Origin: a virus
Lineage: Duplodnaviria; Heunggongvirae; Uroviricota; Caudoviricetes
DNA length: 43,597 nt
Direction: 5' to 3' (one strand)
Virus record (IMG/VR): IMGVR_UViG_2711768020_000006
The notes beneath the pieces were generated by a model, which made no database searches, had not been told where the DNA came from, and saw nothing but the letters and a program-made list of their open reading frames with translations. Below, one piece after another: positions 1,584 through 11,173 of the stretch (positions within the stretch are counted from its first letter, which is position 1; every line of letters starts with the position of its first letter). Position numbers and translations under genes: made by a program.

Positions 1584-1814
1584 ATGGCGAGAAATGAAGT
1601 TAAGCCTGATTGGCATCCTCAAAGAATTTTGGGGGAAGTCAGAGCCAGAGAAGGAAGCATGAGGGCGCTGGCCCGTAAAGCTGGCGTGGGTCAGAACAAT
1701 CTGTACAACGCGGTATACCGCCATGTTCCCAAGTATGAGGGGATTATCGCGGAATGCCTGGGGGTGCCGCCCGAGGAGATTTGGCCCAGCCGCTACATTC
1801 GTAAGGTCGCGTAA
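1584..1814 (+). CDS. ner: Ner-like DNA-binding regulator
   Basis: 76 aa; resembles Mu Ner (WHP..., ...LARKAGVGQNNLYNAV..., C-terminal IWPSRY); sits immediately upstream of the transposase. Confidence 0.8.
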   Translation: MARNEVKPDWHPQRILGEVRAREGSMRALARKAGVGQNNLYNAVYRHVPKYEGIIAECLGVPPEEIWPSRYIRKVA

Positions 1815-1816
1815 TT

Positions 1817-3904
1817 ATGTTTGCTTCAGTTAAAGAACTGGTTGGATTACCGGGGATGCCGGGAACGGAGCAAGGCGTTCGCTATTCAATCAGGAAGTAT
1901 GCAACCAGCGAAACCAGCAGACGCCGCAAGAAAGGCGCTAAAGGTTTTGAATACAGCATTGACTGTTTACCTGAAGTGACACAGCAGGCATTACGCGAAC
2001 GTTATGCCCTGCAACTGATGACGCAAAAAGCCGATGAATCACCGGCTCCGGTGGTGACAAAGGCCAGACGCTCGTCTGCCGTGGTTGATGCGGTGGAGGC
2101 ATATCGCGGATCACCACAACTGATGGTCGAACGCCTCAATGCCCTGACTGAAAACCAGCGCCAGGTGGCAGACGCACGCATTGCGATCGTCAGTGAGGTG
2201 CTGAAATTCACGCAACAACCCGGTTTCAGCTGCGCTAAAGCTATCCGGTTCCTCGTTAACAGCCTGGCACGATCACAACTGGACGAGCGCATTGTGGCAA
2301 TGGTTGAGACGGCGAACGCCAAAAAGGGAAACAGCCGCGCGTTGAGTGAAATCACGCTGAAACGCTGGATTGCGGCCTTTAACAAGGCACAGAACGCCGC
2401 TGAACGCCTGCTTTTACTGGCACCGGGTAAACGCCAGGAAATAAAAGCCGAAGATATTAACTGGCTGCCCGAATTTCTGGCGCAGTATCGCCAGTCAAAC
2501 GGCCGACCAATGACCGAGGCTTACGAGGATTTTGTTGCTGAATGGCAGCACCGGCACGCTGATGAGCCTTATATGCTCGATATCATGCCCTCTTATGACA
2601 CCATTCGCCGCGCAATGAAGAAACTGCCGGAAGTGGTGAAACAAAAAGGCCGGGTAACTGGCAGTGAATACCGTCAGCTTGAGGGATTCACGCGCCGCGA
2701 CTGGTCCAGAATGCCGGTGAATTATGTCTGGATTGGTGACGGTCACGGCATGAAGCTGAAATGCGCGCACCCGGTTCACGGGCGGCCATTCGCACCGGAA
2801 GTGACCTTTGTTATCGACGGTGGCACGCGCTTTGTGGTGGGCTGGAGCCTTGACCTGGCTGAAAATGTTTTCGCCGTAGCCGGTGCCATACAGCACGGTA
2901 TTCGCCATCATGGCAAACCGTTTCTGTATTACTCGGATAATGGCTCCGGGGAAACCGCCGACGTCCTGGATAAGGAGATTGTGGGGATACTGCCACGACT
3001 GGGGATTAATCACCCGACAGGGATTGCCGGTAATCCGCAGGGACGGGGCATTATCGAACGGCTTAACCGCACATTACCGATGCGCATAGCCCGTAAATAC
3101 CGCACCTATTTCGGGAAAGGAGCAGATCGCGAGACGTTACGTAAAACCAACCGCGATTTACGCTCGGCATTCAGTGCCCTGCAACAGGGCAAACGGCTGA
3201 ACGCCCGGCAGCAGTCAGCGATGCGTGATTTACCGTCCTGGTCTGAACTGATTGATGCCATTCGTGACGGTGTTGAGTGGTACAACAACCGGCCGCACGA
3301 TGAATTACCCATGAAGCCGAACGGTAAACATTACAGCCCGGCGGAGTTCAGAAAAAAACGCCTGGCGGAAGAGGACACGGAAATTGAATGGCTGTCCGAT
3401 GTTGAACTGCGGGATATGTTCCGGCCGATGGTGGAGCGCCCTGTAAGACGCTGTGAAATACGCTGGCTGAATAATATTTACTACGCGCCCGAGCTGCGTG
3501 ACGAGCATGGCCGTAAGGTACTTATCAGCTATGACATTCATGATGCCGAACGAATTACCGTGCGCCGCCCGGATGGCAGCGTGATTTGCGAGGCGGTATG
3601 GGACGGCAATAAACGCGAAGCCTTCCCTGTCAGCGCGGAATACTACAAACAGCAGCAGCGCCTTAAAGGCATGCGTAAACGCGCAGAGGAAAAAATCCGT
3701 GATGCCGAGGATGAGGTTGTCAACGTGCTGGAGCACAAGCCGCAGGAGCCCTGGCTGGAAAACATATACCGCCCTGTGGGTAATACGGTGACCGTTCAGC
3801 AACCGGTCGCTGACGATGAACCTGATGAAGAATACGAGCGTAATTTCCAGCGGGGATTGCAACTGCTCGAAGCGAAATTAAAAGAAAGTGATCCGCTGGC
3901 CTGA
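1817..3904 (+). CDS. A: Mu-type DDE transposase A
   Basis: 695 aa; N-terminal GLPGMPGTEQGVRY enhancer-binding-type motif; candidate DDE residues in VWIGDGHG, YYSDNGSGE and GIIERLN; position after ner. Confidence 0.9.
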   Translation: MFASVKELVGLPGMPGTEQGVRYSIRKYATSETSRRRKKGAKGFEYSIDCLPEVTQQALRERYALQLMTQKADESPAPVVTKARRSSAVVDAVEAYRGSPQLMVERLNALTENQRQVADARIAIVSEVLKFTQQPGFSCAKAIRFLVNSLARSQLDERIVAMVETANAKKGNSRALSEITLKRWIAAFNKAQNAAERLLLLAPGKRQEIKAEDINWLPEFLAQYRQSNGRPMTEAYEDFVAEWQHRHADEPYMLDIMPSYDTIRRAMKKLPEVVKQKGRVTGSEYRQLEGFTRRDWSRMPVNYVWIGDGHGMKLKCAHPVHGRPFAPEVTFVIDGGTRFVVGWSLDLAENVFAVAGAIQHGIRHHGKPFLYYSDNGSGETADVLDKEIVGILPRLGINHPTGIAGNPQGRGIIERLNRTLPMRIARKYRTYFGKGADRETLRKTNRDLRSAFSALQQGKRLNARQQSAMRDLPSWSELIDAIRDGVEWYNNRPHDELPMKPNGKHYSPAEFRKKRLAEEDTEIEWLSDVELRDMFRPMVERPVRRCEIRWLNNIYYAPELRDEHGRKVLISYDIHDAERITVRRPDGSVICEAVWDGNKREAFPVSAEYYKQQQRLKGMRKRAEEKIRDAEDEVVNVLEHKPQEPWLENIYRPVGNTVTVQQPVADDEPDEEYERNFQRGLQLLEAKLKESDPLA

Positions 3905-3977
3905 AATAAAAAAATAACCCGAGGGGTGACTCAGGTTATTTGAGGTTTCAGTCTCGGAGAATGCTGTCTCAAGCGAG

Positions 3978-4919
3978 GTGAATAATATGACCGATATTAA
4001 CGATGTAATCAAGACCATTGATGAACTTATTGATGGCGGCGTACTGACGCAGTATGCCATCGCCAGAGAGGCGGGAATTTCCGACGGCACATTATCGGCT
4101 TTCCGTAAGGGAAAATATAAAGGCGATAACGCTGCTGTGGCTGCTTCCCTGCGCTCCTGGTATGAGAACTGGAATAAACAAAGCGCACTGCCGGAACCGC
4201 CGCAGTTTGTGGAAACTCAGACAGTCCAGGAGCTGCGCGCACTGTTTCAGGCGGTTCGCCTGATGGGCTGTATTAACGTTATTGTGGGCGTACCGGGTGT
4301 GGGTAAAACGGCCACTGCCCGTAATTACTGCCAGGAGCAACCAAACACCTGGATGATCACCCTGTCACCCGCGCACTCCAGCGTCACGGAGTGTCTGCTG
4401 GAGCTGGCCGATGCGCTGGGGATTGATTACACCCGCGCGAACAAAGGGGCATTATCCCGCGCCATCCGCCGTCGCCTGATGGGAACGCGTGGACTGGTGA
4501 TTGTGGATGAGGCGGATCATCTTGGTATTGACGGTCTGGAGCAACTCCGGGCAATTCAGGACGCCACGGGGATCGGGATGGTGCTTATTGGTAACCCGCG
4601 CGGATTGTTTAAAGGTGGACGCCGCGCCTTTGATGATTTATCGCGCCTGTTCAGCCGTCTTGCCCGTACAAAACAACTTCGCAAGGCCAAAAAGGCGGAT
4701 GTGCTGGCCATTGCCATGGCGTGGGGGATCAGTGGTGAGGCCGAGCTGGCCGTCATGCAGGCTATCGCTGAAAAGCCGGGAGCGTTACGCGTTCTGACAC
4801 ATACGCTTAACCAGGCGTGGCTCACCGCCAGCGGTGAAGGCGCGGCGCTGACAGAAAAACATATTAATGCGGCCTTTAAAGAGGTTTATACCAACCCTGA
4901 ATTACTCTCACAGGTGTGA
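3978..4919 (+). CDS. B: Mu B-type transposition ATPase (AAA+ target DNA activator)
   Basis: 313 aa; Walker A GVPGVGKT and Walker B LVIVDEADHL; N-terminal HTH; follows A. Confidence 0.9.
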   Translation: MNNMTDINDVIKTIDELIDGGVLTQYAIAREAGISDGTLSAFRKGKYKGDNAAVAASLRSWYENWNKQSALPEPPQFVETQTVQELRALFQAVRLMGCINVIVGVPGVGKTATARNYCQEQPNTWMITLSPAHSSVTECLLELADALGIDYTRANKGALSRAIRRRLMGTRGLVIVDEADHLGIDGLEQLRAIQDATGIGMVLIGNPRGLFKGGRRAFDDLSRLFSRLARTKQLRKAKKADVLAIAMAWGISGEAELAVMQAIAEKPGALRVLTHTLNQAWLTASGEGAALTEKHINAAFKEVYTNPELLSQV

Positions 4920-4921
4920 TT

Positions 4922-5143
4922 ATGGCGGTATTTAATATTCCTGATATTTACGGACGCTTTTACCTGGTTAATTTCGATAACGTGAAGGTGATTTCACTGG
5001 CCGAAAATAAAGAATGTGGCGATTTACTTTTTGAATTTAATGACCGCACACGAATGGTGATATCTGCCGGACTTGATCGCGAAGGTGCGACAGAAGTTTA
5101 CAGCGGAATATGCCGTTCTGTTGGTGCGAAACAAGTCAGCTAA
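4922..5143 (+). CDS. Hypothetical early protein
   Basis: ORF with AGGTG Shine-Dalgarno; ATG chosen over the tracker's GTG at 4916. Confidence 0.4.
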   Translation: MAVFNIPDIYGRFYLVNFDNVKVISLAENKECGDLLFEFNDRTRMVISAGLDREGATEVYSGICRSVGAKQVS

Positions 5144-5155
5144 ATGAGGTGTTAT

Positions 5156-5410
5156 ATGAATATGCAATCCTGCGGTAACAAAATGAATTTATTCGACTCC
5201 CTGAACAGCGCGCGCCGTCTGACCGAACTTGCCGGTGCGGTACTGGAACGCAGTAAGCGCTATCCGCAACGTTTTGCACTGAAAACCACGCCGCCGGTAG
5301 GCAACGTGCAGGGAACCGGTGAAATTGAAATCACCATACAGACCAACGGCCTGCGCCGCCGTGTGAAGGCCACCCGCATCAGCGGCTGCACGGTTTACTG
5401 GGAGGTGTGA
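5156..5410 (+). CDS. Hypothetical early protein
   Basis: ORF; GAGGT Shine-Dalgarno 5 nt upstream of the ATG at 5156. Confidence 0.4.
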   Translation: MNMQSCGNKMNLFDSLNSARRLTELAGAVLERSKRYPQRFALKTTPPVGNVQGTGEIEITIQTNGLRRRVKATRISGCTVYWEV

Positions 5411-5411
5411 G

Positions 5412-5693
5412 GTGAAAAAAAATCTCATTGCATGGGCGTGGTCGAGTGGTCTTATTGAGTTTGGTTACGTCCTGCCGGAAGGTGCATTGCCGATAGTTGC
5501 CGGAAAGCCTGCCACGGTACGGCATGTGATTGAGGTTATGGCGCGTCATGGACGTGATGAACAGGAGCAGTTACTGGTTCCGGGGATACCGGAAGCGGTG
5601 ACGGAGGAAGAAGCCTTTAATGCCATGATTCGGTTCTGCCGTGAGGTTAGACGCCGGGTCAGTTATCCAAACAGAACGAGGACCAGAGGATGA
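5412..5693 (+). CDS. Hypothetical early protein (GTG start)
   Basis: ORF abutting the previous stop; GGAGGTG Shine-Dalgarno. Confidence 0.4.
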   Translation: MKKNLIAWAWSSGLIEFGYVLPEGALPIVAGKPATVRHVIEVMARHGRDEQEQLLVPGIPEAVTEEEAFNAMIRFCREVRRRVSYPNRTRTRG

Positions 5694-5962
5694 GTAAAGT
5701 CGTACGCATTATTTTCGAATACAAGGAAGATGTTATCTGCAAAAACTCTGATGGCAGCACGCACAGAGGGGTAAGTCTGGATATACGTTCAACCGGAATA
5801 AAGAAGAAAGATAATGGACCCGCCATGATTTTTGGGGTGGTTATGCTGGCAGAAAGCAGAAACTTCGCAGAGTTTGTGGCAATGAAAGCCAGTGCATTCA
5901 TGAAAGACAGAGGCATGGCTTCCGGGGTTATTAACGGTAATGAATTTAATCAACAGGGGTAA
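5690..5962 (+). CDS. Hypothetical early protein, N-terminus MSKVVRIIFEY (paralogue of the next gene)
   Basis: ORF with AGAGGA Shine-Dalgarno; shares its N-terminal motif with 5967-6260. Confidence 0.45.
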   Translation: MSKVVRIIFEYKEDVICKNSDGSTHRGVSLDIRSTGIKKKDNGPAMIFGVVMLAESRNFAEFVAMKASAFMKDRGMASGVINGNEFNQQG

Positions 5963-5966
5963 TTCC

Positions 5967-6260
5967 ATGAGCAAAGTACGCGTTATTTTTGAATTTAATC
6001 ATGTTTCGCATGACGAAAAGTTGGCAGGCAATGACTGTGTTGAAGTGCATGAAAAGATTGGAGTGGATGTGAAAACAGAACGTGATACGGATAACAGGCC
6101 GACGTCACTCTGTGACGTTTATGCAAGTATTCTCCAGTATCACAGTCCTGCAATTATTCAGTTTCTCTCAGCGGAATTTCAGGCATCTGCACAGTCTTTT
6201 GGAGCGGATGCCATCATTAAACGCCACCGCGTGCATAAAGCATCAGGCACACTGCAATAA
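5967..6260 (+). CDS. Hypothetical early protein, N-terminus MSKVRVIFEF
   Basis: ORF; internal ATG with AGGGG Shine-Dalgarno preferred over the tracker start at 5940. Confidence 0.45.
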   Translation: MSKVRVIFEFNHVSHDEKLAGNDCVEVHEKIGVDVKTERDTDNRPTSLCDVYASILQYHSPAIIQFLSAEFQASAQSFGADAIIKRHRVHKASGTLQ

Positions 6261-6271
6261 GGAAAAACAAA

Positions 6272-6802
6272 ATGGCTAAACGCGTTACAAAATTAAAGGC
6301 CGCAGCCGAGGCGGCACCGCAGACCCGGGAAGAAGTCAGCCGTGATATCCGCACCCTGGGAGATATTCAGCGAGAGGCGCTGCGCCTGGAAACGGCGATG
6401 AATGACGAAGTGGCAGAAATCACCGCCCGTTATACGCCGCAGATTGAAAATCTTAAAAAGCAAATCAAAGTGCTTTTTAAAGGGATTCAGGACTGGTGCA
6501 AAACCAACCGTGATGAGCTGACGAACGGCGGCAAAACCAAAACAGCCAATCTGACCACCGGAACGGTGTCATGGCGGCTGGGAACGCCATCATGCAGCGT
6601 CAGCCGTGATGTGGAAGGTGTGATTGAAATGCTGCGCCGTATGGGGCTTGAGCGTTTCATCCGCACGAAAGAGGAAGTGAACAAGGAAGCCGTCCTGGCG
6701 GAGCCGGATGCTGTGAAAGGCATTGCCGGTATCAAGGTGAATAAAGGCGCTGAAAGTTTTTATGTCGAGCCTTTTGAACAGGACGCCGGACTGAATAAAT
6801 AA
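6272..6802 (+). CDS. gam: Gam host-nuclease inhibitor (Ku-like DNA-end-binding protein)
   Basis: 176 aa; strong resemblance to Mu Gam (RLETAMNDEVAEIT, CKTNRDELTNGGKTKTANL, ERFIRTKEEVNKEA). Confidence 0.88.
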   Translation: MAKRVTKLKAAAEAAPQTREEVSRDIRTLGDIQREALRLETAMNDEVAEITARYTPQIENLKKQIKVLFKGIQDWCKTNRDELTNGGKTKTANLTTGTVSWRLGTPSCSVSRDVEGVIEMLRRMGLERFIRTKEEVNKEAVLAEPDAVKGIAGIKVNKGAESFYVEPFEQDAGLNK

Positions 6803-6947
6803 CACCGCATTAATCAATTAAATATCACTTCATTTTAATTATGGCGCTCGCGTCAGGGGACTGCTTGCGCCTGAAAACAGAAAATAAGGGTTAAGAAATA
6901 TGAAATACGTTTATATCGTCATTAATAATGTGGTGGGGAAATAAATC

Positions 6948-7481
6948 ATGATTGATGCAAAAGTGCTTGAAGGGGTTAAAAACTGGCTGTGTATTTATGG
7001 CCGCCTGACCTGCGGTGTACTGGCTGAAAAAATGAATATGCCGCCATCCTCCATGGTTTATTTTCTGCGTGATGCGGTTGATGCAGGCGTGCTGACGGAA
7101 TGTAACGGTTTTTATGATATTCCGCGTCCCCGCCCGGTGCAGCCGGTTCGTCGCAAATGCAGCCAGGAATCTGCGGCTGATGATGTTCAGTGGTGCGGCT
7201 TCAGAAAATCCCTGCCATGGATTGAGGGGCATGATATTCCGTCGATGGCGTGGGAATTTGCTCAGGGCGTTCTGACCTGTGAAACCGTTTATGTGGTGGC
7301 TGAAGTTGATGAGCAGGCCATGAAAGAAGGCGTGCCCCAGTTTGTGATGGCGTATATCGACATACGCCTGGGCGTCATTATCTGCGGTTTAAGCGGCTGG
7401 AATATCACTGAACATGTTCTGCGCTACCTGATTGTTGACCGGACAGCAGCGCCTGCCGGGATATCTGCGGAGGTGGCGTAA
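6948..7481 (+). CDS. Hypothetical early protein (possible N-terminal winged helix)
   Basis: ORF with Shine-Dalgarno; translationally coupled to the next gene. Confidence 0.4.
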   Translation: MIDAKVLEGVKNWLCIYGRLTCGVLAEKMNMPPSSMVYFLRDAVDAGVLTECNGFYDIPRPRPVQPVRRKCSQESAADDVQWCGFRKSLPWIEGHDIPSMAWEFAQGVLTCETVYVVAEVDEQAMKEGVPQFVMAYIDIRLGVIICGLSGWNITEHVLRYLIVDRTAAPAGISAEVA

Positions 7482-7996
7482 TGTTCTTTAAAACATCAAA
7501 CCCTTCCGCGCTGGCTGCGTGGCAAAAATACCAGCAGGACTGCCAGAAAGTTAAGGATGAGGCAAAACGCCTTGAGGCCGTGCTGAATGTTGCGTGCCGG
7601 TCGGTATTTGTATCCGGTATCAGTGGATTTTACTTTAAGGGACTGCGTTTTACGGAGGACAAATATCCTTTTCATCGCGACTTATGGCGAAAACCGACTG
7701 CGTCGAATGGCTGGAGCTGCACACCGCGCACATCACGTATCCCTAAAACCCTGCGTGTTGCCTCTGATGAACTGAACAGTCTGTGGCGTGAATATTCGCC
7801 CGTCACGTATGCCAGAACCGATGCGCTGTTGTTCTGGTTGGGTATTGATTTCTCGGCAATCCTGTTTGGCCCTGTGAAGTGGTTCTGCGTTGACGATGTG
7901 ATTTACCTTCAGTGCGGCGTAAAACCCGCAAAACAGAAAATGACCGAAATACTGTCTGATGAGTTTTATGCTGCTGAAAAGCGAGTCAGGGGGTGA
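7481..7996 (+). CDS. Hypothetical early protein
   Basis: ORF; ATG overlaps the upstream stop. Confidence 0.4.
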   Translation: MFFKTSNPSALAAWQKYQQDCQKVKDEAKRLEAVLNVACRSVFVSGISGFYFKGLRFTEDKYPFHRDLWRKPTASNGWSCTPRTSRIPKTLRVASDELNSLWREYSPVTYARTDALLFWLGIDFSAILFGPVKWFCVDDVIYLQCGVKPAKQKMTEILSDEFYAAEKRVRG

Positions 7997-7999
7997 TGC

Positions 8000-8551
8000 A
8001 TGATGAAATTACAACCCATGGGACTAAAAGGTCGCGCCCCCGCTCATGTCCGTCCGTGGACACCTGAAGAAGATGCGCTGCTGATTGCGCTTTATTCATC
8101 CACCCCGGTTAAGGATATTGCTGCCAGAATAAAAAGAACTGTCTGGGCTGTATATAACCGGACTGGTGTATTGCGCAGTTCATACCCGGAGTTACTGAAA
8201 TATAAACACCCAAGATTTACACCTGATGAAGATAAGTTTATTCGAAAAAATGCCAGAACAATGACCTGCCAGCAAATGGGAGAATATCTCGGACGTAATA
8301 AAGATTCTGTCAGATGTCGGGCAGGAATGATTGGTGCTGGATTAACAAAGTGCGGAGAGTTACGCCCCGGCACGCGCATATCTGATGATGATGTACGTCT
8401 TATACGTGAGCTGCGTGATTCCGATTACCCACGCCGTCTGTCATTCCGGGAAATTGGCGAAAAGTTTGGAATATCTGAACATTCTGCTCACGCAGTTTAT
8501 TACCGTCGCCGGACTGCCGAGGACGCTGTATTACGGGAGTTAACGCCATGA
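8000..8551 (+). CDS. Hypothetical DNA-binding protein with two Myb/SANT-like repeats and a C-terminal HTH
   Basis: Repeats WTPEEDALLIALY...W and FTPDEDKFIRKNA... seen directly; C-terminal LSFREIGEKFGISEHS looks like an HTH. Confidence 0.45.
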   Translation: MMKLQPMGLKGRAPAHVRPWTPEEDALLIALYSSTPVKDIAARIKRTVWAVYNRTGVLRSSYPELLKYKHPRFTPDEDKFIRKNARTMTCQQMGEYLGRNKDSVRCRAGMIGAGLTKCGELRPGTRISDDDVRLIRELRDSDYPRRLSFREIGEKFGISEHSAHAVYYRRRTAEDAVLRELTP

Positions 8552-8880
8552 TAACGACCTTATTTGTTGAATCAGATGAACCTCTTGTGTGTGCCGCCGG
8601 AATGCCGCTCTGTGGCGGAACGCTGACCGGCGTTTATTTCGGGGATTTGCGCGGTTATCCCTGGCATTCACTGGATGACGCATTTCCGCCTGATATGGAG
8701 GCTGTCGTGCTGATTGTTCAGTATGGTGACCAACAGGAACTGCGCATCGGCCATATGGGGTATGAAGGCTTTTTTATTGATGAAGAAACCGGAGCCTGCC
8801 TTGAAGATGAGGACGGACAGGTGACGCACTGGTGCCATCTTTCGGCCTTGCCGGAATTACAGGGGATACATAATGGATGA
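8548..8880 (+). CDS. Hypothetical early protein
   Basis: ORF coupled (ATGA) to the upstream gene. Confidence 0.4.
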   Translation: MITTLFVESDEPLVCAAGMPLCGGTLTGVYFGDLRGYPWHSLDDAFPPDMEAVVLIVQYGDQQELRIGHMGYEGFFIDEETGACLEDEDGQVTHWCHLSALPELQGIHNG

Positions 8881-9016
8881 GCAAATTGTTGAATGTCCCA
8901 CCTGTGGAAATGAGGACCCGGAGTATCTGAAAGAGTGCCCACATTGTGGTGAGATAAAATGTAACCACTGCGATATGGGCGACGACACTGCATGTATAAA
9001 TTGTGAGGATGAATAA
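8873..9016 (+). CDS. Small zinc-ribbon protein (47 aa, four Cys pairs: CPTC, CPHC, CNHC, CINC)
   Basis: Translated by eye; absent from the ORF track because it is under 60 aa. Confidence 0.45.
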   Translation: MDEQIVECPTCGNEDPEYLKECPHCGEIKCNHCDMGDDTACINCEDE

Positions 9017-9017
9017 T

Positions 9018-9305
9018 ATGGAAAAAGAAATCAAATTTGCGCCTAAATCTATCGACGAAGAACTGGCTAAAATCGGCATGCTTGAACGTATGCGGGACAT
9101 TATCGAATATGCGATAAAAGAAAATCTTGCAGCCAGAGAAGCCCTTTTGATAATGGAGCGGGAGATTAACCTGATTAAGGATGCTGTATCTCTGGATAAT
9201 AAAATAGCCCGCGAGGAATACGTTCGCCGTAGGCTCGGTGTTGATGGTTCAGCAATTCTTACATCTGAACATTATGCAAAAATTTTTAATCTTTTTCAGC
9301 GGTAA
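9018..9305 (+). CDS. Hypothetical early protein
   Basis: ORF; ATG at 9018 with GAGGA Shine-Dalgarno preferred over the tracker start at 9003. Confidence 0.4.
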   Translation: MEKEIKFAPKSIDEELAKIGMLERMRDIIEYAIKENLAAREALLIMEREINLIKDAVSLDNKIAREEYVRRRLGVDGSAILTSEHYAKIFNLFQR

Positions 9306-9525
9306 TCCCCATACAGGCCCGGAGATTGTCGAAATGCCAGTCGGTATTAATATATGAGCCATCCTGGATATCTTCTGCATTTTCCGGGGTAGAGTTTTTT
9401 TGAGCGAGATTGATAATATGTATTGCCTCCTCACGGGAAATCAGCCCCTTATCGAACAGGGTTACCATAAGATTTCCAGCCATTGTGAATGCGGCAACAT
9501 CAAGTGCATTTTTTATATCTGACAT
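9286..9525 (-). CDS. Hypothetical small protein encoded antisense to the early operon
   Basis: 79-aa ORF with AAGGA Shine-Dalgarno 9 nt upstream; it fills a plus-strand coding gap (9306-9595). Confidence 0.5.
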   Translation of the reverse strand: MSDIKNALDVAAFTMAGNLMVTLFDKGLISREEAIHIINLAQKNSTPENAEDIQDGSYINTDWHFDNLRACMGITAEKD

Positions 9526-9553
9526 AGATTTTTCCTTTTATGTTAATTGACAT

Positions 9554-9582
9554 GGCGGTGCGGTAACACCGCCCATTTTTTA
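9554..9582 (+). terminator. Rho-independent terminator candidate (GGCGGTG-cggtaa-CACCGCC followed by a T-run)
   Basis: Hairpin and T-tract seen directly. Confidence 0.5.
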
Positions 9583-9595
9583 TGGAGCCACGATA

Positions 9596-10108
9596 ATGAA
9601 TCGCGCTTCCCTGATTACCTTAATACATGTCGCAAAACGCGATCTACAGCTTGACCATGATACCTATACATCCGCGCTGCTGGCAGCCACCGGCAAATCC
9701 AGTTGCCGTGATATGTCACCCGGTGAGTTATCCCGCGTGCTGGATGTTTTCAAAAAACGCGGTTTTAAAGTGCGTCAGAAGCCGGTTAACCGGGCCTTAA
9801 AACCGGGTACGGTGACCGCCAAAATTCGCGCCATCTGGAAAGTGATGCACCGGCAGGGATTTATCTCTGATGGCGGGGAAACGGCCCTTAACCGCTGGGT
9901 GAAATCGCAGACGGCCGCGCAGAACGACGGCGAAGGTGTGGCTAACTGGCAGTGGCTGGAGCAACAACCCGCGCTGGCCTCTGATGTGCTGGAGCGTCTC
10001 AAACGCTGGCACCGCCGCAAAATGCTGGCAGCCCTGGATATGTCGGAACGTGCAGTGATGAGTTATGAGCGTGTTTGCAGGCTGTATGAAAAATCATTCC
10101 CCCGTTAA
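9596..10108 (+). CDS. gemA: GemA-like early protein (Mu gp16 family)
   Basis: 170 aa; position just upstream of the Mor/C-type activator and general resemblance to the Mu GemA family (from memory). Confidence 0.55.
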   Translation: MNRASLITLIHVAKRDLQLDHDTYTSALLAATGKSSCRDMSPGELSRVLDVFKKRGFKVRQKPVNRALKPGTVTAKIRAIWKVMHRQGFISDGGETALNRWVKSQTAAQNDGEGVANWQWLEQQPALASDVLERLKRWHRRKMLAALDMSERAVMSYERVCRLYEKSFPR

Positions 10109-10113
10109 CCCCA

Positions 10114-10143
10114 AATCCCGCCACAGCGCGGGATTTTTATTTT
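10114..10143 (+). terminator. Rho-independent terminator (AATCCCGC-cacagc-GCGGGATT followed by TTTTTATTTT)
   Basis: Hairpin and T-tract seen directly; lies at the end of the early region as the Mu t9.2 terminator does. Confidence 0.7.
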
Positions 10144-10178
10144 AAACTTGCCCTGTGTAATGATGACCGGAGGCGGGT

Positions 10179-10601
10179 ATGGCTGAAACACAGATGAGCA
10201 TGTTTGGTGACAGCGAACAGCTGCACGCGCTGATTGACCGTCTGGATGATATTCCTGATGATGAGCTGAAAAAGAACTGGCCCGGCACGCTGCGGGACCT
10301 GGTTGATGTGATCAGTGCTGAACTGCACCGTCAGGGGATTGAACCTGCTCAGGCGGGAATGCTTGCCCGTAAGGTTGCAGCCGCACAGGCCGGGTACATG
10401 GGCGGGCGTGGTTATTATCTCCCGGTCGGTGAATCCCTTTTCACCGAACTGCGCAATAATGAAATTTTTTCCCGCTGGAGCCAGGGCGAAAAAATTGAAA
10501 CCCTGCGCCGCCACTACCAGATGTCAGAGACGCAGATTTACTCCGTTATCCGCAACCAGCGTCGCCTGCATCAGGAACGCACGCAGCCACGGCTTTTCTG
10601 A
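10179..10601 (+). CDS. Mor/C-family transcriptional activator (middle/late gene activator)
   Basis: 140 aa; position between gemA and the lysis genes; C-terminal HTH (YQMSETQIYSVIRNQRR). Whether it corresponds to Mor or C cannot be decided. Confidence 0.65.
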   Translation: MAETQMSMFGDSEQLHALIDRLDDIPDDELKKNWPGTLRDLVDVISAELHRQGIEPAQAGMLARKVAAAQAGYMGGRGYYLPVGESLFTELRNNEIFSRWSQGEKIETLRRHYQMSETQIYSVIRNQRRLHQERTQPRLF

Positions 10602-10672
10602 TATTCCGCAAATCCTGCCCCCTTTTCCTCACGGTTACGCTGACTCAGAGAACACCATGAGACAGCGTAACA

Positions 10673-11173
10673 ATGCCAAAACTCCCCGCACCCCTGCGTA
10701 AAAAGCTGATTGCCCTTGTTCTGGCCGGAGCCGGGACGTTCACCATTGCCACGCACTACACCGGCTACTGGGAAGGGAAAGAAAACACCACGTACATTGA
10801 TCCCACCGGCACCCCCACCATCTGTTACGGCCATACCGGCCCGGATGTGAAACCGGGGATGACAAAAACTGATGAAGAGTGTCTGGAGCTGCTGGAAAAG
10901 GACATGAAATGGGCCTTTGCGGCTATCGATCGTCATGTTCAGGTGCCGCTTACCCGTGGTCAGACGGTGGCGCTGGCCTCCTGGATTTTCTGGGCCGGTG
11001 AAACGAACTTTCGCAACTCCACGCTCCTGCGCCTTATCAATGCCGGGCAGATGCCCGCGTCCTGTAAGCAGTATATCCGCTGGATTTATTCAAAGGGGGT
11101 AAAACTCCCCGGTCTTGAGGCCCGCCGTTCGGCGGATGAATGGTTATGTCGTTACGATTTGCCGAAAGTCTGA
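10673..11173 (+). CDS. SAR endolysin (T4-lysozyme-like, GH24)
   Basis: N-terminal weakly hydrophobic signal-anchor LIALVLAGAGTFTIA; catalytic E-x8-D-x5-T pattern in YWEGKENTTYIDPTGTPT. Confidence 0.85.
   Translation: MPKLPAPLRKKLIALVLAGAGTFTIATHYTGYWEGKENTTYIDPTGTPTICYGHTGPDVKPGMTKTDEECLELLEKDMKWAFAAIDRHVQVPLTRGQTVALASWIFWAGETNFRNSTLLRLINAGQMPASCKQYIRWIYSKGVKLPGLEARRSADEWLCRYDLPKV

Follow-up and report, generated by a model that had tools for sequence, protein, structure and literature searches.

Early genes between gam and gemA in a Mu-like prophage of Escherichia coli: known but uncharacterised Mu-type genes, a constrained zinc-ribbon peptide and a probable moron-like antisense gene

Between gam and gemA, the transposable phage Mu carries a poorly characterised part of its semi-essential early region, and it is to this general region that classical genetics mapped functions such as arm (amplified replication of Mu). 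The Mu genes gp11, gp12, gp13 (also called E14) and gp14 lie here, and all four are uncharacterised. The functions of the semi-essential genes have been described as 'largely unknown', and gem has been reported to be active in lysogens (PMC3820752); GemA is described as molecularly uncharacterised (PMC12407980). In the Pseudomonas Mu-like phage Fc02, exclusion genes that adjoin the repressor gene are expressed in the lysogen (PMC9936078). Our literature searches on the functions of Mu gp11 to gp14, on a 'semi-early' promoter and on DUF2513 returned nothing usable. Here we analyse the corresponding interval, positions 6948 to 9525, of the IMG/VR virus record IMGVR_UViG_2711768020_000006; this whole stretch of 43,597 nucleotides (nt) is called the window below.

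Both its genes and its closest matches identify the window as a Mu-like transposable prophage of E. coli. Positions 6800-9700 are 100% identical to a prophage of E. coli strain 600029 and recur in 13 other complete genomes at 92-99.9% identity over at least 92% of the length, and parts of this 2.9-kb query were matched in 232 of 5426 complete E. coli genomes; a further match (90.7%) lies in the 'inserted Mu-like phage' region of an Stx1a phage record. The RefSeq neighbours in strain 600029 are a repressor, a Ner-like protein, a Mu transposase, MuB, several small genes, Gam, the interval itself, GemA ('gp16 family'), a Mor-family activator and a lysozyme. A preliminary description, made from the sequence alone, had placed a poorly characterised semi-essential block between gam and gemA, and the Pfam matches of both flanks together with the Mu homologues between them bear this out (Table 1). 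We conclude that the interval is very probably the distal half of the semi-essential early region, a mosaic of known, uncharacterised Mu early genes, and that it includes a gene of opposite (leftward) orientation that is most likely moron-like. By homology the block is an ordinary one made of Mu-type relatives: four syntenic homologues, one relative of Mu gp9 and one neglected leftward Mu open reading frame (ORF), with only the 110-amino-acid (aa) gene lacking a Mu counterpart. Two points are of modest interest, the constraint on the gp13 zinc ribbon and a conserved yet swappable antisense slot upstream of gemA.

The rightward genes correspond to Mu gp11, gp12, gp13 and gp14 (Mu reference AF083977, with identities from BLASTP here and below) in order, strand, tight packing and protein identity (49-88%), and differ in that two extra genes, encoding the 183-aa and 110-aa proteins, stand between gp12 and gp13. 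Packing is close throughout: gp11 and gp12 overlap by 1 nt, the 183-aa and 110-aa genes by 4 nt, and the 110-aa and zinc-ribbon genes by 8 nt, while 1 nt separates the zinc-ribbon stop (9016) from the gp14-like start (9018). Because these stop and start codons overlap or abut, the six rightward genes look like a single operon and would be transcribed together, presumably from the early promoter. Identity to Mu is uneven along the early region, at 23% for the transposase, 48% for MuB, 57% for Gam, 68% for gp11, 46-48% for GemA and 88% for gp13; the 'semi-essential' gp11 and gp13 are thus far better kept than the essential transposition proteins. For the 110-aa protein, BLASTP found no match among the Mu proteins, and its Pfam match to DUF551 is below threshold. 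The alignment with Mu early genes suggested in the preliminary description yields gp11 to gp14 orthologues, and since these Mu counterparts are themselves uncharacterised, it assigns none of the genes to a characterised Mu protein.

Table 1. Features of the interval and its flanks (window coordinates)
Feature	Coordinates	Strand	Evidence
Gam (host-nuclease inhibitor), left flank	6272..6802	+	Pfam Phage_Mu_Gam E 5.5e-42; 57% identity to Mu Gam
gp11 orthologue, 177 aa	6948..7481	+	68% identity to Mu gp11, full length; Pfam Gp11_C E 5.7e-41; phrog_1949
gp12 orthologue, 171 aa	7481..7996	+	55% identity to Mu gp12; phrog_2314 E 1e-84
183-aa Myb/SANT-like protein	8000..8551	+	AlphaFold (AF2) model, family profile, RefSeq name
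110-aa protein, C-terminal region weakly DUF551-like	8548..8880	+	phrog_6925 E 2e-51; DUF551 E 0.062
47-aa predicted zinc-ribbon peptide, gp13/E14 orthologue	8873..9016	+	88% identity to Mu gp13 residues 20-60; phrog_5584 E 3e-26
gp14 orthologue, 95 aa	9018..9305	+	49% identity to Mu gp14; phrog_6075 E 5e-44
79-aa leftward gene, accessory	9286..9525	-	nonsynonymous-to-synonymous ratio, family motifs, conserved position; phrog_32893 E 1.3e-45
GC-rich 7-bp stem-loop, then CATTTTTTAT	9554..9573	+	terminator-like match
GemA, right flank	9596..10108	+	Pfam GemA E 1.8e-28; 46-48% identity to Mu GemA

The best-conserved early protein between the window phage and Mu is the zinc ribbon (window 8891-9013, compared across the early region 1584-11137). 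Its 47-aa ORF carries eight cysteines in four CxxC pairs (C8/C11, C22/C25, C30/C33 and C41/C44), all of which are kept in Mu gp13/E14, and the identity extends over the C-terminal 41 aa. Against Mu, the ratio of nonsynonymous to synonymous differences per site (pN/pS) is 0.09 (pN 0.064, pS 0.70), and against the SE11 prophage it is 0.08. Because synonymous sites are near saturation, this conservation reflects constraint and not recent exchange. The 41-residue module ECPTCGNE.PEYLKECPHCG..KCNHCDMGDDTAC.NCE.E is near-invariant in Mu, D108, SfMu, Yersinia Muviruses and E. coli prophages, and it occurs behind differing N-termini, in proteins of 47, 52, 60 and 231 aa. Mu gp13 itself has an N-terminus of 19 residues, and in Mu the DNA encoding it overlaps gp12 at that gene's 3' end; the window copy lacks this N-terminus and begins MDEQIV, a loss that follows from the two extra genes between gp12 and gp13. 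The adjacency to the gp14-like start is the same in Mu, in SE11 and in a Muvirus-like contig (L012). Generic zinc-ribbon models of Pfam match the peptide below threshold. By these measures the 47-aa ORF is a real gene, an orthologue of Mu gp13/E14 predicted to bind zinc, and such constraint on a small, rigid module, presumably stabilised by metal, would be explained most simply if the peptide bound an invariant partner. The zinc ribbon that the preliminary description reported as missing from the ORF list is thus confirmed, and, as a known Mu gene, it is no novelty of this element.

Two relatives show other arrangements at this position. In one Muvirus-like contig (L016) the 60-aa gene found there encodes a different protein without the eight-cysteine module. 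In another such contig (L015 4510-5205, minus strand of the locus) a 231-aa protein of the phrog_6418 type, whose gene stands in place of gp12, ends in the zinc ribbon; we rejected a gp12-gp13 fusion as the origin of this protein, its N-terminal ~175 residues being unrelated to gp12.

We asked of both small ORFs whether they might be chance ORFs or decaying remnants without a product, so that only the larger genes would matter. RefSeq annotates every ORF of the interval in strain 600029 except the 47-aa one, the current Mu reference gives the rightward ORF Mu_54 and not the leftward one, and frameshifted versions of the leftward gene exist in several assemblies, some of them with the shift at a run of seven A; all three facts speak for this explanation. 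For the zinc ribbon it is countered by the low pN/pS at saturated synonymous sites, by the retention of 8/8 cysteines and by the annotation of the gene in Mu, D108 and SfMu; the pipeline presumably missed the 47-aa gene because it is short. The 79-aa leftward ORF is annotated by RefSeq in the identical genome and has an AAGGA motif 8 nt before its ATG. Its five natural variants (92-100% DNA identity) align without insertions or deletions, with pN/pS of 0.18-0.32 in the gene's own frame vs 0.7-1.1 in the other two frames of the same strand. We therefore regard the explanation by chance or decay as highly improbable for either ORF, and the leftward ORF as a genuine protein-coding gene of accessory character, in agreement with the earlier claim of an opposite-strand gene with its own Shine-Dalgarno sequence. 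All three ORFs singled out in the preliminary description, these two and the 183-aa one, lie exactly where it placed them, and we judge all three to be real genes.

An exhaustive HMMER search brought together nine representatives of the leftward family, including proteins of 67-85 aa at 31-49% identity, with the motifs FDvAAFTlAGN, KGviS.eEA and DWHLDNL. In the alignments and in phrog_32893 the window protein conforms to the family consensus, [FL]D-x-[AVC]-[AS]-F followed by KG-x-[ILV]-[ST] and E, with a C-terminal DWH[LF]DNL. Scans of genome contigs with the family alignment and of viral contigs with P0041 gave no match. In distant relatives the C-terminal DWHLDNL is kept in the 79-aa frame only. 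Because the motif exists in that frame alone, the variants of 88-92 aa are best read as frameshift derivatives; their C-termini match an alternative frame of the window (a 61-aa ORF, 9249-9434), and the A7 run in mid-gene corresponds to T7 at 9395-9401 on the plus strand. Homopolymer slippage, sequencing error or gene decay could explain these shifts.

The position of the leftward gene is conserved. Its 3' end overlaps that of gp14 convergently by 20 nt, and a homologue lies antisense directly upstream of gemA, again in convergent overlap with a gp14-like gene, in 7/7 further loci examined (one divergent IMG/VR Mu-like contig, L011, and six Muvirus-like contigs, L012-L017). Mu has an 88-aa leftward ORF at the same place (AF083977, 7896-8162, minus strand). 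BLASTP between the 79-aa protein and this Mu ORF was not significant; the family profile aligns with its N-terminal 54 residues (hhalign probability 93%, E 3e-7). The two thus share their location between gp14 and gemA, the antisense orientation, the convergent overlap with gp14, an upstream hairpin and a homologous N-terminal part of ~54 residues, and differ in unrelated C-terminal halves, of the DWHLDNL type in the window and of an acidic 88-aa type in Mu. Compared with a 66%-identical relative, the Mu ORF keeps its length without insertions or deletions and has the lowest pN/pS of all six frames (0.55). It has been named before, as putative 'F-134' in the old Mu left-end record (M64097), as WP_000431116.1 in the RefSeq annotation of the E. 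coli W prophage and as SfMu_16 in SfMu; the current Mu reference instead annotates the 55-aa rightward Mu_54 (7960-8127). Given the homology to the window family, the frame comparison and these earlier listings, the leftward 88-aa ORF is better supported than Mu_54, and the Mu annotation may need revision.

Among the 5426 complete E. coli genomes, the slot before gemA is occupied by the 79-aa type in 14 and by the Mu type (88 aa) in 56, and 6 genomes carry there, in the same orientation, one allele of an unrelated DUF2513 gene. We considered homology between the DUF2513 and 79-aa families and rejected it (hhalign probability 0.2%). The prophage of E. coli M18 (L018 5573-6253) has, instead of the entire gp13-gp14-leftward segment, unrelated rightward genes reaching up to gemA, one of which encodes a predicted membrane protein. 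In Yersinia phage vB_YpM_3 the gap from the gp14-like gene to gemA measures 51 nt, and the annotation shows no leftward gene in it. Other variation touches the interval as well: TOE17 carries a 116-aa coiled-coil-like gene together with the DUF2513 gene (L003 3575-4621), many relatives have a DUF5420 gene between gam and gp11 (L004 1588-2166), and in other relatives the insertion elements IS903B, ISKpn26 and IS1A interrupt the region.

A hairpin accompanies the leftward gene, lying between its start (9525) and the Shine-Dalgarno sequence of gemA (start at 9596), and on the early plus-strand transcript it is terminator-like. It is found at the same place in six divergent genomes, fully (100%) paired and with compensatory changes in 2 pairs, and also beside the DUF2513 gene of the TOE17 type; M18, which lacks the leftward gene, lacks the hairpin too. 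An Rfam search of 6800-10200 at E <= 1 gave no family for the hairpin; its one result, a chance match to a Trp leader, lies outside the interval. The leftward gene and the hairpin might together form a regulatory device for gemA and mor, in which attenuation or antisense control of early read-through times the middle genes or silences them in lysogens and the peptide is secondary. The invariant adjacency to gemA, the compensatory changes in a hairpin just before the gemA ribosome-binding site, the T-run that follows the stem in the window as in an intrinsic terminator, and the occurrence of Mu terminator hairpins within or beside annotated middle and late promoters would all fit such a device. 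It is harder to reconcile with a peptide that is under purifying selection and keeps its motifs in relatives of 31-49% identity, with the strong Shine-Dalgarno sequence in every leftward copy, with an unrelated DUF2513 gene that can fill the slot while the hairpin is kept, and with the loss of the whole unit from some functional-looking relatives. We consider a primarily regulatory role distinctly unlikely.

The most economical and most likely reading is instead that the leftward gene is a moron-like gene expressed in the lysogen, as its orientation, its polymorphism of replacement and absence and its low G+C suggest. Orientation against the early operon, with early transcription opposing, implies that the gene would be expressed when the early promoter is repressed, hence in the lysogen. 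As in morons, the gene is present, absent or replaced among collinear relatives (79-aa type in 14 genomes vs 232 with an interval match). G+C is 0.41-0.455 in the leftward-gene interval (sequence windows starting at 9200-9400), 0.39-0.43 in gp13-gp14 and 0.51-0.60 in gemA; because the low-G+C stretch is shared with gp13-gp14, composition alone does not single out the leftward gene. With the exclusion genes of Fc02, and with morons, it shares a small size, an orientation opposing the lytic operon, presence, absence and replacement among relatives, and a G+C below that of gemA and gp11-gp12. The Fc02 genes differ in adjoining the repressor (PMC9936078), whereas the window gene adjoins gemA, and its expression in the lysogen and any role in exclusion are putative.

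Several observations weigh against this reading. A consensus scan, which atypical promoters could escape, found no sigma-70-like promoter for the leftward gene conserved among six genomes; the sole promoter match in the window is weak (9/12) and lies inside gemA. As its 3' end runs convergently into gp14, a terminator of its own would have no space there, and the gene thus appears to lack both its own promoter and its own terminator, two classical features of morons. The frameshifted versions of 88-92 aa, which occur in several assemblies and arise at no fewer than two independent positions, some at the A7 run, imply that some lineages can do without the gene or are losing it. For the 79-aa protein, an AF2 model built from a single sequence is mediocre (predicted local distance difference test, pLDDT, 71) and shows three helices; Foldseek against the PDB found nothing below E 3.7 with it. 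Finally, Pfam, NCBIfam and PHROGs assign a function to none of the seven genes of the interval, and the NCBIfam search returned nothing meaningful for its proteins.

The 183-aa protein had been described as carrying two tandem W/F-TP repeats of Myb/SANT type and a C-terminal helix-turn-helix (HTH). The two repeats hold, opening with WTPEED at residue 20 (W20) and FTPDED at residue 74 (F74), and the supposed C-terminal HTH proves to be a third, diverged copy of the same repeat. An AF2 model computed from the family alignment (pLDDT 84) has three successive three-helix bundles (22-59, 75-110 and 129-169; helices 22-32/37-44/48-59, 75-84/90-97/101-110 and 129-140/149-156/160-169) and a terminal helix, and an alignment of the repeats places the third bundle (RISDDDVRLIRELR) alongside the other two as a diverged copy. 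A profile of 18 family members matches c-Myb R2R3 (1h88_C) in register over two repeats (E 5e-6). RefSeq names the identical protein 'SANT/Myb-like DNA-binding domain-containing protein', and homologues of 41-62% identity in Mu-like prophages of E. coli and Salmonella carry precomputed matches to PF00249 and/or PF13921. Set against these results, the window copy itself scores below the Pfam thresholds (19.7 vs 24.4 bits for PF00249, 16.5 vs 22.9 for PF13921), and Foldseek against the PDB gave weak matches, every one at E > 0.03, headed by the tandem-HTH DNA binders Cbp1, SNAPc, DUX4, Tc3 and Pax. The canonical triple-tryptophan spacing is absent: only the first aromatic (W20, F74) is in place, the other positions are aliphatic, and repeat 3 begins with Ile. 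Compared with c-Myb R2R3 and PF00249 (PDB 1h88), the protein thus shares tandem three-helix repeats of ~50 aa, each opening with an aromatic-TP-acidic signature, and differs in having three repeats instead of two, in the divergence of the third and in the loss of the tryptophan spacing. On profile homology and modelled fold, we conclude that it is built of three Myb-like repeats in tandem, each of three helices. The protein probably binds DNA in a sequence-specific manner, and as in c-Myb R2R3 it would most likely do so as a monomer through the third helix of successive repeats.

Mu has a relative of this protein in gp9/E8 (95 aa), which aligns with repeats 2 and 3 (hhalign probability 97.5%, E 7.6e-12). 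The 183-aa protein is longer, and its gene lies between gp12 and gp13, whereas Mu gp9 is encoded upstream of gam; the window phage has no gp9 homologue upstream of gam. Relatives of 41-99% identity are confined to Mu-like prophages of E. coli and Salmonella; there is also a full-length relative, annotated as a DNA-binding protein, in a Mu-like Citrobacter phage, and in mycobacteriophages some regions with HNH endonuclease or DNA methylase annotation match the same repeat type.

The preliminary description had further proposed a role in host takeover or anti-defence, and one may ask whether the cluster is an island of this kind, whose products, above all the zinc ribbon and the Myb-like and DUF551-like proteins, would counter restriction, CRISPR or other defences or switch off functions of the host. 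In its favour, these are small early genes of uncharacterised function, some of which vary from one related prophage to another; different cassettes occupy the stretch from the 110-aa gene to gemA, and the DUF5420 gene enters after gam in relatives. For Mu-like phages of Pseudomonas, interactions of the neighbouring Gam and GemA proteins with DNA-repair and defence pathways of the host have been described (PMC12407980), and the extreme conservation of the zinc ribbon would fit a conserved host target. However, gp11 to gp14 are conserved, core-like Muvirus genes and not variable cargo, and the seven proteins, searched together with the DUF2513 and 116-aa alternatives, have no match at E <= 0.1 in PADLOC-DB, which models defence systems and not anti-defence proteins. 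With neither similarity to described defence components nor a functional family, and with no fold match for the leftward protein, the proposal finds no support here, and we regard it as unlikely.

A wider proposal can be built on the moron-like reading. Mu-like phages, Mu included, would carry a hairpin-marked leftward slot, filled either by genes that share an N-terminal domain and have swappable C-terminal halves or by DUF2513. Lysogens would express this slot and gain from it superinfection exclusion or some other trait of lysogenic conversion; in addition, gp13 would bind an invariant host protein needed for Mu development. As a whole we hold this to be possible at best, and rather doubtful. 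Were the antisense slot a lysogen-expressed exclusion or conversion locus, or were gp13 to target a host factor, this would be the first function for the semi-essential region of a classic model phage. For now the results mainly tidy the annotation: RefSeq lacks the strongly constrained 47-aa gp13 gene in this prophage, the protein that it names 'SANT/Myb' contains three repeats and is related to Mu gp9, and the backward gene has its Mu counterpart in an ORF that the current reference no longer lists.

Some observations concern the remainder of the prophage. Its left end (window about 1-606, by offset from L002 734-1807) borders on a gene for an SgrR-family regulator, which is truncated and lies beside queC, and for this reason the prophage appears to be inserted into, and to disrupt, a host gene of that family. 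Two small genes upstream of gam (5690-5962 and 5967-6260) both start MSKV.R.IFE and are 22% identical to each other (E 6e-4); they look like tandem paralogues with no detectable Mu counterpart. Between gemA and the lysozyme gene there is one Mor/C-family activator (10179-10601; 40% to Mu C, 28% to Mu Mor), and because this gene is single, the window phage seems to be without a separate Mor gene and the gp18-gp20 block at that place. A TraR/DksA-family gene lies further downstream. A second terminator-like hairpin (10113-10136, plus strand), with a 9-bp stem followed by TTATTTTAAA, comes immediately behind the gemA stop codon and ahead of the Mor/C-like gene.

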